A DNA stretch of 64,000 nt from the IMG/VR virus record IMGVR_UViG_3300042888_002665; one strand, 5' to 3'. Below the pieces are notes generated by a model. That model worked only from the letters and a program-made list of their open reading frames with translations, did no database searches and was not told the origin of the DNA. This stretch comes from a virus. Shown piece after piece: positions 38,442 to 40,877 of this stretch; within the stretch, counting starts at the first letter, position 1, and every line of letters starts with the position of its first letter. A program made the position numbers and the translations under genes.

Positions 38442-38456
38442 AACATTTATTTTAAG

Positions 38457-38530
38457 TGGACCAGGTAGGAATCGAACCTACTACCTTTTGATTATGAGTC
38501 AACTGCTCTAACCGAGTGAGCTACAAGTCC
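38457..38530 (-). tRNA. tRNA(CAT), most likely Ile2 (lysidine) rather than Met
   Basis: GGACTTG TA GCTC ACTCGGTTA GAGC A GTTGA CTCATAA TCAAA AGGTA GTAGG TTCGATT CCTAC CTGGTCC A; U6-U67 mismatch; no CCA. Confidence 0.88.
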
Positions 38531-38655
38531 AAATGGGGGATTGAAAAAGCCCGGCCCCCGTCCGTCCAACCAACGATTTGGCCCACGCGCAGTTCTTATG
38601 GGATGCTTAATGGTGATTTCGATCTAGCTGCCCTGCAGAACAGACTAGCGGTATG
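38531..38655 (-). ncRNA. putative structured RNA between tRNA genes
   Basis: About 53% GC (hand count) in an AT-rich genome; four local hairpins. Confidence 0.35.
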
Positions 38656-38833
38656 CTGTAGTGGGTGGATTCGAACCACCATAGGGCAATTAGGTAAAGG
38701 ACAATAGCGCTTGCAAGCTGGTGGTCTACCCCGATATCCTTACTTTATTTCGTTATTCCCCGCCCCCGAGACAGGAGGGTGCGTATGCCTCAGATTAGAG
38801 ATACTATCTCTTTTCTTCTTTCGCCACACTACA
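38656..38833 (-). ncRNA. 178-nt tRNA-Asp(GTC)-like RNA with enlarged D-loop and 82-nt variable arm
   Basis: Acceptor TGTAGTG/CACTACA + G73, D-stem GCG/CGC with GG, anticodon arm CCCTC-CTGTCTC-GGGGG, T-arm GGTGG-TTCGAAT-CCACC. Confidence 0.75.
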
Positions 38834-38839
38834 ATTTAT

Positions 38840-39256
38840 TTACTTTAAATCTAACTCTAATTGATTACTTCCTGTCGTTGGTTGTTGTTGTGGTAATGTA
38901 GATGTATAACTCCAATTAGAACCACTAGGATTCCACAACGTCGTTGTAGATGGATTATATGTAATAGTTCCACCACTTCCGGTTGCCACCGTCAATATTC
39001 CACTAGTTGTACCACAATGTATCTTATATGGATTAAATGGGTCTGATGGGTATGGTTGGATAAATGGTATTGTTTGTATTGGTGCTGAATTTGGTGTTCC
39101 CCATCCACCTTCACCAATCGGAGAACCATAATCAGGGCAGTCTTTAATTTTGTCCAATTCCGAAACAATGGTTTCCCATTGCTTCGGTGTTGGTCCTTCT
39201 TCATTTACTGCTTTAGTAAATCCTTTAAGCCAGAATATAAATTGTTCCTTATTCAT
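38840..39256 (-). CDS. hypothetical protein with Pro/Thr/Gly-rich tail
   Basis: EQFIFWLKGF...PTPKQWETI motif. Confidence 0.65.
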   Translation of the reverse strand: MNKEQFIFWLKGFTKAVNEEGPTPKQWETIVSELDKIKDCPDYGSPIGEGGWGTPNSAPIQTIPFIQPYPSDPFNPYKIHCGTTSGILTVATGSGGTITYNPSTTTLWNPSGSNWSYTSTLPQQQPTTGSNQLELDLK

Positions 39257-40877
39257 ACATGTTTATGTCTACTGGTTGGTCTGATTTTTTATCTTCAGGT
39301 TTATTATATACAATCGATTCTGTAATCAAAATCGTACCTGCAACTGATACTGCGTTTTCTAATGCTAATCGAGTTACTTTAGTAGGATCGATAATACCAT
39401 CATTAATTAGATTATTAATGGTTTTAGTTTTTAGATTGTATCCATGTTCTGAAGTAACATCAGATAATCGATTTACAATACCGAATGATTCTAAATTTTC
39501 GTATCCGGCATTAGATAATATCTTTAGGAATGGAGAAGTACAAGCACGATAAACAATATCACGTCCTAAATCTAAATCTACATTATCGTATTTTTTATCA
39601 GCTAGTACTTGACGAGCATGAATTAAAGCAACTCCACCACCAGGTAATATACCTTCCTGTAGGGCTGCTTTGGTTGCGTGTAAAGCATCATCAACACGGT
39701 CCTTTTTCTCTCTCATTTCTACTTCCGTAGGAGCGCCGATATTAATTACTGCTACACCACCTGATAATTTGCCTAAACGTTCTTGTAATTTTTCACGTTC
39801 AAACATTGATTTAGCATTATCGATTTGTTGTTTTAAATCATCAATACGTTGCTCAATTTCCTCAACATTACCTTTACCATCAACAATTGTAGTTGTTTCT
39901 TTAGCCACTGTAACTAAGCGAGCCGAACCTAGCCAATCGGAATTGAATTTCTCCAATTTCATTCCCTTTTCTGGTGAGATAACTTGCCCGCCTGTTACTG
40001 TAGCAATGTCTTCTAAGATATGCAAACGGCGATCTCCAAAATCAGGTGCTTTAACTACTGCTGCTTTTAGAATACCACGCATTTTATTTACTAATAATGT
40101 TGATAGCGCTTCACCATCAATATCTTCAGCAATAACTAACAATTCATCATTTGATTGTGATAATGAATTTAGTAATGGTAGTAATTCTTTAACTTGAGTT
40201 AAACGACCATTATACAATAAAATCTTAGGATTGTTTAATGTAGCAGTCATTGTATCGTTATTTGTAACAAAGTATAATGATTTATATCCCTTATCGATTT
40301 GGATACCTTCTACAATCTCTAATGATGTTTCGCCAATACGAGATTCCTCTACTGTAACTACACCATCTACACCTACTGCTTGCATTGCTTCAGAAATTAA
40401 TGCACCGATTTCCTCATCACCATTAGCTGAAATAACTGCTACTTGTTTGATTTGCTCGTCTGAAGTAATATCTTTGGATATTTCTTTGATTCGGGTAATA
40501 ATTTCTTTTGTTGCTTGCTCAATACCACGTTTAACTTCTACTGCATTTGATCCAGCTTTAATAGCGTTGAATCCGTCTGCAATCATAGTTGATGCAAGTA
40601 ATGTAGTTGTAGTAGTGCCATCACCAGCTAAATCAGCTGTTTTAATAGCTGCTTGCTTTAATAGTTGTGCTCCAATGTTTTCAATTGGATTTTCTAACTC
40701 AATAGAACGAGCAACCGTAACACCGTCTTTAGTTGATACTGGGTTTTCACCTGCATTATCGATAATTACGTTACGACCGTTTGGTCCTAATGTACACGTA
40801 ACTGCATCTGATAATTTGATGACGCCTTTTAATAATTTGGTTTTTGCGTCTTGATTAAATACTATTTGCTTACTCAT
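39249..40877 (-). CDS. groEL: chaperonin GroEL
   Basis: TLGPNGRNV, TKDGVTVA, AGDGTTT, GIQIDKGY, ERLGKLSGGVAVI, GGGVAL, IIDPTKVTR; lacks the GGM tail. Confidence 0.97.
   Translation of the reverse strand: MSKQIVFNQDAKTKLLKGVIKLSDAVTCTLGPNGRNVIIDNAGENPVSTKDGVTVARSIELENPIENIGAQLLKQAAIKTADLAGDGTTTTTLLASTMIADGFNAIKAGSNAVEVKRGIEQATKEIITRIKEISKDITSDEQIKQVAVISANGDEEIGALISEAMQAVGVDGVVTVEESRIGETSLEIVEGIQIDKGYKSLYFVTNNDTMTATLNNPKILLYNGRLTQVKELLPLLNSLSQSNDELLVIAEDIDGEALSTLLVNKMRGILKAAVVKAPDFGDRRLHILEDIATVTGGQVISPEKGMKLEKFNSDWLGSARLVTVAKETTTIVDGKGNVEEIEQRIDDLKQQIDNAKSMFEREKLQERLGKLSGGVAVINIGAPTEVEMREKKDRVDDALHATKAALQEGILPGGGVALIHARQVLADKKYDNVDLDLGRDIVYRACTSPFLKILSNAGYENLESFGIVNRLSDVTSEHGYNLKTKTINNLINDGIIDPTKVTRLALENAVSVAGTILITESIVYNKPEDKKSDQPVDINMYE

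Follow-up and report, generated by a model that had tools for sequence, protein, structure and literature searches.

A tRNA-Asp-like RNA with a giant variable arm in Bacteroidota and their phages

Class II tRNAs carry a helical arm that leaves the tRNA body between positions 44 and 48, and the arms known from this class are roughly 13-21 nt long. Here we describe an RNA gene of 178 nt on the minus strand of a 64,000-nt stretch of viral DNA (IMG/VR record IMGVR_UViG_3300042888_002665; the whole stretch is called the window below), which belongs with its relatives in phages and bacterial chromosomes to a family built on such a body. Like class II tRNAs, and especially tRNA-Leu (RF00005), the family combines a 7-bp acceptor stem and a 5-bp T stem (7/5) with a 3-bp D stem and its loop AAYUGGCAGA, the A15-U48 pair, G18G19 and the T loop TTCGAAT, and its arm leaves the body at the same place. 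In contrast to the known class II arms, however, the arm of the family ranges from 21 to ~120 nt (82 nt in the window), is branched and is conserved in sequence, and unlike tRNA-Leu the RNA has G73 and a GUC loop with a pyrimidine at position 37 instead of A73 and a leucine anticodon. With canonical tRNA-Asp(GUC) it shares the loop nucleotides C32, U33, G34, U35, C36 and C38, the closing pair C31-G39, G73 and G2-C71, but it differs from that tRNA by its class II body, by U1-A72 in place of G1-C72 and by U37 in place of A37, and it coexists with tRNA-Asp and does not replace it.

Long-armed, non-standard tRNAs of bacteria and phages have been described as allo-tRNAs, which have GUC among their commonest anticodons and for which a role in missense suppression or as regulatory RNAs has been suggested (Mukai et al., 2017; PMC5389517). 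While allo-tRNAs have acceptor/T arrangements of 8/4 or 9/3, serine identity and carriers in other phyla (PMC5389517), the present family is 7/5 with A72, a Leu-like D arm and a conserved anticodon, and the size and conserved sequence of its arm have no counterpart among them. Membership of the allo-tRNAs was excluded, since the 7-bp acceptor stem and the 5-bp T stem covary in exactly that register. In YrlA Y RNAs the stem that binds Ro is made by the two ends, with the tRNA-like part lying between them. These RNAs are likewise non-coding, contain a tRNA-like domain and also occur in phages (PMC4201824), but members of the present family close their ends into a normal acceptor stem followed by a discriminator, and they have an anticodon arm. 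Given these ends, and since Rfam yields neither a Y-RNA nor a YrlA match at E up to 10, the Y-RNA-like scaffold proposed in a first-pass annotation of the window finds no support. Self-pairing loops hold together several homodimeric or multimeric RNAs, among them the HIV-1 dimerisation initiation site, phi29 pRNA, and ROOL, GOLLD and raiA. As in those RNAs, many members of the family expose in a loop a palindrome that changes by lineage yet stays self-complementary, in one subfamily with a length of 6 nt and flanking A residues; here, in contrast, the palindrome, a candidate pairing site, sits on a tRNA body and is absent from most chromosomal members.

We consider the element to be a tRNA-processed, probably aspartylated, non-decoding tRNA look-alike with a giant arm that may serve as a handle, and we give this reading a probability of about one half. 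The proposal of the first-pass annotation that the RNA is a tRNA mimic is, in this general form, still the best reading, and its description of an intact, selected, tRNA-shaped RNA has likewise stood, whereas its view of two equivalent insertions, of excisable modules and of Y-RNA likeness has not.

An intact, covarying RNA and its family

Standard tools pass over the element. ARAGORN, which called seven ordinary tRNAs in the window, did not call it, and Rfam left it unmatched at the gathering threshold as well as at E up to 10, an outcome that bears on the first-pass annotation, which had named a match to a known family as evidence against itself. No family of Rfam 15 fits, the short 90-nt members included, for which the tRNA model stays below threshold. 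Thermodynamic folding alone was rejected as evidence since it is uninformative: the minimum free energy (MFE) z-score of the element is -0.21, and the MFE structure mispairs the T arm with CCACC of the giant arm at -48.9 kcal/mol, compared to -43.8 kcal/mol when the covariation-supported fold is completed. Since the standard detectors and free-energy folding are silent, the case rests on the comparison with relatives.

The 24 nt comprising the T arm and the acceptor 3' strand are unique in the window (0 expected) and were also found in eight IMG/VR contigs, each time within a full-length homologue, and of seven T-loop motifs GGTTCRANYC in the window six lie in called tRNAs and one in the element. 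A family covariance model built from 36 phage copies, with the window copy among those seeds, gave a single match on the 64-kb window, namely the element, aligned end to end at 143.6 bits (E 2.7e-34). In the alignment of these 36 copies the seven helices scored (acceptor, D, anticodon, T, arm P1, arm P2 and the small apical hairpin) pair in 96.5% of cells, and 25 of 37 pairs show compensatory double changes; none of 500 shuffles attained any of five measures, and pairing fell to 44-56% when partners were shifted by 1-3 columns. Compensatory changes occur in five of seven acceptor pairs, with U1-A72 and G2-C71 invariant, in D-stem pairs 10-25 and 11-24, in three pairs of the 5-bp anticodon stem and in seven of nine P2 pairs, where other subfamilies swap the whole helix (for example AUUGGUAAUA/UGUUAUCAAU). 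A second alignment of 22 model-collected copies, 17 of them chromosomal, gave 97.2% pairing and double changes in 23 of 37 pairs, values that lean to the model structure because this alignment was fitted to the covariance model. The element is thereby confirmed as a real, intact and selected tRNA-shaped RNA, with stems that covary in more than 100 homologues, and the covarying helices of both alignments bear out the earlier argument that intact stems speak against decay. Reading the minus strand from 38833 down to 38656 gives all the cloverleaf parts listed in the first-pass annotation (7-bp acceptor stem with discriminator G, T arm, D stem, 38-nt D loop with hairpin, anticodon arm and 82-nt variable region).

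Relatives were collected by three pattern scans anchored on different parts of the RNA and by one anchored on the D loop and the anticodon loop, which gave at least 120 viral loci; the same D-loop/anticodon-loop pattern, run on one genome per prokaryotic species, gave at least 120 genome loci. Among the matches listed there are at least 90 distinct phage copies of 90-178 nt and at least 77 distinct chromosomal copies of 108-192 nt in Bacteroidota, and the fractions out of 90 and 77 given below refer to these. The carriers include Algoriphagus, Cyclobacterium, Echinicola, Belliella, Arcicella, Flectobacillus, Spirosoma, Aquirufa, Saprospiraceae, Roseivirgaceae and Persicobacter. When 151 evenly sampled Bacteroidota genomes were searched with the family model, 13 had hits above 95 bits (108-212 nt) and two more had weaker long hits, while ordinary class II tRNAs of 82-87 nt reach only 50-60 bits. 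The family occurs in about one in ten sampled Bacteroidota species and on more than 100 phage contigs, and no description of it was found in Rfam or in searches of the open literature aimed at the RNA itself, reviews of unusual tRNAs included. Judged by these comparisons it is a widespread, uncatalogued and apparently tRNA-derived RNA of Bacteroidota and their phages. Although tRNA is among the best-surveyed RNA families, the standard detectors thus miss a widespread tRNA-derived gene, and annotation pipelines either overlook these genes or label the short ones tRNA-Asp, as ARAGORN does with members of 90-98 nt, including 90-nt members with a 21-nt arm. Cultured carriers exist in Algoriphagus, Cyclobacterium, Arcicella, Spirosoma and Echinicola.

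Two other classes of RNA were considered and rejected. A reading as transfer-messenger RNA (tmRNA), with the frame GAU AAC GAA AUA AAG UAA through the joining strand J1/2, fails since J1/2 differs between subfamilies, U3-A70 stands in place of G3.U70, the anticodon arm is intact, and the tmRNA models of ARAGORN and Rfam are silent on the element, although they do detect tmRNAs in related phage contigs. A known ribozyme, intron or riboswitch inside the arm was rejected as no Rfam match was obtained at E up to 10. Genuine tmRNA genes are encoded by two of the carrier contigs, at 2157-2534 of L035 (G004) and at 3960-4294 of L112, with tags ending in ...YAVAA and ...VALAA.

Two variations within the family may be mentioned here. 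The T stem of several phage copies (L010, L014, L017, L028 and others) has a one-base U bulge in its 5' strand, with GGAUGG or GCAUGG opposite CCUCC or CCUGC, which is unusual for a tRNA that binds EF-Tu. In Persicobacter diffluens, positions 6500-7250 of L214 hold five tandem giant-armed RNAs at 172-nt spacing; a Persicobacter genome also has eight tandem canonical tRNA-Asp genes (G007 contig 1, 657176-658671) away from the giant-armed copies.

Identity nucleotides, giant arm and D-loop hairpin

The nucleotides that aspartyl-tRNA synthetase (AspRS) reads are kept in the family. All 167 copies have G2-C71, G73 and the encoded C74, and all but four, which have A1-U72, also have U1-A72. Strong aspartate determinants are G73, G34, U35, C36 and C38, with G2-C71 as a minor one, whereas A73 marks leucine and C72 and C11-G24 mark serine (PMC9976931); in the family A73 and C72 never occur and C11-G24 is found in a minority of copies. 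For the anticodon loop, unbiased sets were taken from matches anchored outside the loop and from a model-collected sample. The 21 model-collected loops read CUGUCUC (6), UUGUCUC (6), UCGUCUC (3), CUGUCCC (2), CUUUCUC (2), CGGUCUC (1) and UUGUCCC (1), so that GUC-Y-C is kept in 19 of them, positions 32 and 33 drift, and position 37 varies between U and C. Position 37 was U or C in every family member read, and U33 is replaced by C or G in four unbiased copies (L297, L298, L299 and L304). The window copy fits the family loop NNGUCYC with CUGUCUC, one of the two commonest unbiased forms, and its nearest relative, G001, has CUGUCCC; the aspartate marks combined with a pyrimidine at 37 that the first-pass annotation had picked out (GUC, C38, G73 and U37) are all present. 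The two copies with CUUUCUC, a Glu-type anticodon loop, are the tandem genes L300 and L301 (G145 contig 1, 3852069-3852399), which are 109-110 nt long and keep U37 and C38.

Normal tRNA-Asp occurs beside the RNA. Canonical CTGTCAC tRNA-Asp genes were present in five of five host genomes tested, with the host loop CCTGTCACG as opposed to CCTGTCTCG in the window, and the related phage contig G003 carries a normal tRNA-Asp as well as a giant-armed RNA. A purine at position 37 is, to our knowledge, near-universal in decoding tRNAs.

The arm varies smoothly in length across the family, from a plain 21-nt class II hairpin upwards. Its base helix P1 has 4-5 bp and covaries, and P2 has 7-10 bp. The strands joining the two helices are conserved in sequence (..ACGAAAUAAA on the 5' side and CCUAAUUG on the 3' side), with the variants CUGAUAAAC/SCUAAAG and GGAUAAAC/GCUAAC in other subfamilies. 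The base of the arm had been drawn as a helix GGGGAAT/ATTGCCC; covariation supports only the four pairs GGGG/CCCT, and AAT/ATT falls within these joining strands. At the apical junction a small hairpin GG-UWGA-CC-A-C is followed by a variable tip, and GACCAC, which is invariant where this hairpin is present, was found in 76/90 phage and 44/77 chromosomal copies. The extra hairpins of chromosomal copies are capped by GNRA or UUCG loops.

In 47 of 50 distinct phage arm tips GACCAC is followed by a perfect palindrome of 6-12 nt, with 25 different cores. The median energy of these palindromes is 0.0 kcal/mol as a hairpin and -13.1 kcal/mol as a self-duplex, and GCUUGCAAGC of the window has -0.1 compared to -16.3 kcal/mol. 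One subfamily has 6-nt palindromes (GCUAGC, GCAUGC, GCGCGC and UGUACA) between AA and AAUG, which are unable to self-fold and vary by paired substitutions. Since self-complementarity has been selected without a conserved sequence, as intermolecular pairing predicts, this suggests that the phage RNAs may form homodimers through the arm tip. In most chromosomal copies a U-rich linker takes the place of the palindrome, with exceptions in a Cyclobacteriaceae subtype (CGAGCUCG) and a few others.

The second insertion of the window copy is of another kind, although the first-pass annotation had treated both alike. Between A15 and G18, where 2 nt are usual, there are 29 nt in the window, whereas the D loop is normal in its close relatives L002 and L006, which have the flanking open reading frame (ORF) and tRNA-Met in common with it, and in the nearest record, G001. 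Hairpins of unrelated sequence occur at the same D-loop site in 25/90 phage and 0/77 chromosomal copies, and G.U pairs in some of them indicate that they are hairpins of RNA. From this distribution the D-loop hairpin appears as a recurrent, optional decoration of phage copies, and the part that defines the family is the arm; the window copy is unusual in combining both.

Possible function of the RNA

Under the favoured reading the RNA would be transcribed from the minus strand together with the upstream GroEL gene and a 138-aa ORF and with the downstream tRNA-Met, and would then be excised and receive CCA as a tRNA does, as suggested by the intact acceptor/T-arm minihelix, the elbow nucleotides, and a C74 encoded as in the neighbouring tRNAs. 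Co-transcription with the neighbours is assumed since no promoter or terminator signal was found beside the gene. The selective retention of G34, U35, C36, C38, G73 and G2-C71 points to recognition, and probably aspartylation, by the host AspRS, while the pyrimidine at 37 throughout, the loss of U33 in some copies and the coexisting tRNA-Asp argue that the RNA would not routinely decode. That the nucleotides read by AspRS are kept while those needed for decoding drift points to a charged tRNA-like RNA used outside the ribosome, and a large, conserved RNA domain would be the working end of such an RNA. The giant arm, with its bent internal loop, the GG-UWGA-CC-A-C hairpin and the self-complementary tip of phage copies, may be a handle for a partner; the tip would most likely join two phage copies into a dimer, and the D-loop hairpin would be an optional, phage-only decoration on the elbow side. 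That the tRNA machinery tolerates a decorated tRNA is seen from engineered tRNAs, which stay active with an added aptamer hairpin (PMC7590224). The RNA likely matters in infection, since phages have adopted it and added D-loop hairpins and self-pairing tips.

Several observations weigh against this reading, the two that concern the fit to AspRS being the most serious. Class II synthetases approach the tRNA from the side of the variable arm, so that an arm of 82 nt could hinder AspRS. The family has U1-A72 where bacterial tRNA-Asp has the conserved G1-C72, which helps to place the 3' end in AspRS (PMC9976931). The large pattern-collected sets fixed the loop CCTGTCTCG, and its conservation therefore rests on the smaller unbiased sets, in which the two chromosomal copies mentioned above carry UUC and not GUC. 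Dimerisation cannot be the core function of the family since most chromosomal copies have no palindrome, and the palindromes could also stem from a cause at the DNA level. Finally, a census of ORFs within 4 kb of the 90 phage loci found no universal protein neighbour and so indicates no partner.

Of the explanations that compete with the favoured one, a working tRNA-Asp isoacceptor for GAU/GAC, whose arm, D-loop hairpin and U37 would evade host tRNA-cleaving defences, accounts for the full cloverleaf of the window copy, with U33 and every core tertiary nucleotide, for the many contigs that place the RNA among or beside phage tRNA genes, for the tRNA-Asp calls that ARAGORN makes on 90-98-nt members and for the lack of a canonical tRNA-Asp within the 64-kb window (ARAGORN). 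Altered arms could matter in this respect, as the Septu defence cleaves the variable loop of tRNA-Tyr (PMC13096335). We nevertheless hold a decoding role to be unlikely, because of the pyrimidine 37 in every member read and the C or G at position 33 in four unbiased copies, because the RNA accompanies normal tRNA-Asp in bacteria, for which evading their own defences would serve no purpose, as it also does in phage G003, and because the arm is conserved in sequence, beyond merely being different. Rather unlikely, too, is an RNA that is never aminoacylated and acts as a decoy or sponge for an anticodon nuclease, the queuine-inserting enzyme or another modification enzyme. Such a decoy would fit the U33-G34-U35 context and tRNA-Asp-like loop of the window copy and the frequency of the family in phages, and a dimer joined at the tip could be a two-headed bait, yet a loop decoy has no need of the G73, G2-C71 and C74 that are invariant in 167 copies, the queuine-inserting enzyme needs the U33 that is not conserved in the unbiased set, and the presence of the RNA in the chromosomes of many free-living bacteria speaks for a housekeeping role.

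Charging by seryl-tRNA synthetase (SerRS) through the long arm and G73, as for allo-tRNAs and tRNA-Sec, would make the RNA a missense or regulatory tRNA at Asp codons. A long variable arm, G73 and G2-C71 are indeed among the bacterial SerRS determinants (PMC9976931), and serine-identity allo-tRNAs often carry GUC (PMC5389517), but we find this improbable: no member has C72, most copies have U-A instead of C11-G24, the D arm is Leu-like and not Ser-like, and the acceptor/T arrangement is 7/5 and not 8/4 or 9/3. SerRS is not known to read the anticodon, and serine charging leaves the selective conservation of G34, U35, C36 and C38 unexplained, the bacterial serine identity row listing no anticodon base (PMC9976931). 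The excisable small-RNA modules of the first-pass annotation correspond to a precursor from which the D-loop and arm inserts would be removed, yielding small RNAs or a tRNA that is either split or of normal size. As this would require, each of the two inserts is a hairpin domain of its own with closing helices; however, no splice-type motif and no match to a ribozyme or intron family was seen, the arm base helix is conserved within one fold with the joining strands, which are the most conserved part and continuous with the tRNA core, and the smooth range of arm lengths from 21 to ~120 nt fits expansion and not a mobile insert, so that excision is very improbable. A chance match, a decayed tRNA gene or an attachment site copying the 3' end of a host tRNA would agree with the non-significant MFE z-score and the silent detectors, but compensatory changes in every helix, 5' half included, refute chance and decay, and full-length homologues exist in hundreds of loci while the element is unique in the window; for an attachment site (attP) in particular, the covarying 5' half, D arm and anticodon arm led to rejection, and we regard this whole group as practically eliminated.

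Two further proposals would extend the favoured reading of a charged, non-decoding look-alike. Phage copies might be obligate symmetric homodimers whose palindromic tips pair head to head, giving a particle of two-fold symmetry that would match the pair of tRNA sites on the dimeric AspRS. We consider this doubtful; if true, the particle could capture or re-route the aspartate-charging enzyme of the host in infection, and larger assemblies could arise from copies whose D-loop hairpin is palindromic as well. As an idea only, the invariant GAC of the small arm hairpin may mimic an Asp codon and pair with the GUC anticodon of the same RNA or of normal tRNA-Asp.

The window copy and its neighbourhood

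The features of the window copy are collected in Table 1. Its cloverleaf core is complete (U8, A14, G18G19, T loop and U33), and the core kept in the family comprises U8, A14, A15 with U48, G18G19 and the T loop TTCGAAT. The D arm is tRNA-Leu-like with A14, A15 and G18G19 (in GGCAUA) kept; it reads UG-GCG-A-AA(29-nt insert)GGCAUA-CGC compared to UG-RYG-R-AAYU-GGCAGA-CRY in the family and thus differs by one base (GGCAUA/GGCAGA) and by the insert. All family parts of the arm are present, namely P1, J1/2 (..GAAAUAAA), J2/1 (CUAA..), P2 and the apical GACCAC hairpin. J1/2 and J2/1 together may be akin to the UAA/GAN internal-loop motif.

Table 1. Coordinates of the tRNA-like RNA gene and its parts in the window.
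Feature	Position	Strand	Remarks
Whole tRNA-like RNA gene	38656..38833	minus	178 nt; position 1 at 38833, G73 at 38656, encoded C74 at 38655
Acceptor 5' strand UGUAGUG (U1, G2)	38827..38833	minus	pairs with 38657-38663, 7/7 pairs
Acceptor 3' strand CACUACA	38657..38663	minus	followed by discriminator G73 at 38656
D arm	38781..38824	minus	3-bp stem GCG (38822-38824)/CGC (38781-38783), 38-nt loop
D-loop insertion	38790..38818	minus	29 nt compared to the usual 2; hairpin AGAGAU-AGU-AUCUCU at 38797-38811
Anticodon arm CCCUC-CUGUCUC-GGGGG	38763..38779	minus	GUC 38770-38772, U37 38769, C38 38768
Variable region (giant arm)	38681..38762	minus	82 nt; position 44, P1, J1/2, P2, apical three-way region, J2/1, P1', AU with U48
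P1 5' strand GGGG	38758..38761	minus	pairs with CCCU 38683-38686 (first pair G.U); compensatory changes in 3/4 pairs, 99% of cells paired
J1/2 AAUAACGAAAUAAA	38744..38757	minus	conserved joining strand, GAN motif
P2 5' strand GUAAGGAUA	38735..38743	minus	pairs with UGUCCUUUAC at 38694-38703, one U bulged
Small hairpin GGGG-UAGA-CC-A-CC	38720..38732	minus	outer pair covaries G-C/U-A
Apical palindrome GCUUGCAAGC	38709..38718	minus	inside AGCUUGCAAGCGCU 38706-38719; candidate self-pairing (dimerisation) site
J2/1 CUAAUUG	38687..38693	minus	partner strand of J1/2, UAA motif
T arm GGUGG-UUCGAAU-CCACC	38664..38680	minus	compensatory changes in 4/5 pairs

The window is AT-rich large-phage DNA (~32% G+C) with all genes on the minus strand, and the genes near the RNA include GroEL (39249-40877), a family B DNA polymerase and a clamp loader. 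The RNA sits inside a non-coding gap of 305 nt between the 138-aa ORF (38840-39256) and tRNA-Met(CAU) (38456-38530); GroEL and the 138-aa ORF lie upstream, and tRNA-Met starts 125 nt downstream. On the minus strand immediately upstream of the RNA, neither a convincing sigma-70-type site nor the Bacteroidota -7 motif TAnnTTTG was found, and no terminator signal was found beside the gene. Phage copies often lie inside or adjoining tRNA clusters, frequently beside tRNA-Met(CAU). In the ORF census the commonest neighbour cluster, which has no Pfam domain, occurred at 21/90 phage loci and PhoH at 14. An AsnC-type regulator adjoins the RNA in Spirosoma and Flectobacillus only (two of eight chromosomal loci with scanned neighbours) and was rejected as a general partner since it is lineage-limited and absent at the other six. 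What looked like a correlation of the base preceding position 1 with the one following C74 was likewise rejected as a coincidence of counts.

The spacer of ~125 nt between the tRNA-like RNA and tRNA-Met (38531-38655, minus) is G+C-rich and forms a separate conserved element, which recurs before tRNA-Met(CAU) in L023, L277 and L279, in L277 with no giant-armed RNA upstream, and its invariant core GGCCAAATCGTTGGTTGGA also precedes a different tRNA in L278. A GGGGG/CCCCC stem near its 3' end is changed to GGAGG/CCUC in L023. The spacer, with an MFE z-score of +0.7, has no Rfam match, neither to an HDV-like nor to another ribozyme, and resembles a structured tRNA leader.

Other unusual tRNA-like genes were observed on related contigs. 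A second odd family, of Leu-like class II tRNA look-alikes, is found at 2766-2859 and 6079-6193 of L033 (G003), at 1336-1437 of L034 (G005) and at 998-1095 of L038 (G002), and does not occur in the window. Its members are 93-115 nt long, with the acceptor AGTCAGG.../...CCTGACTA and the T arm ACAGGTTCGAATCCTGT, while the anticodon and arm regions are wholly different in each copy, one of which ARAGORN labels tRNA-Glu(CTC). A tRNA-like gene of 100 nt, GTATTAGTAATTCAG...CCAACCTAATACT, is conserved between L033 (3567-3666) and L034 (2717-2816); it has ~25 extra nt after the anticodon region and scores ~36 bits with the Rfam tRNA model.

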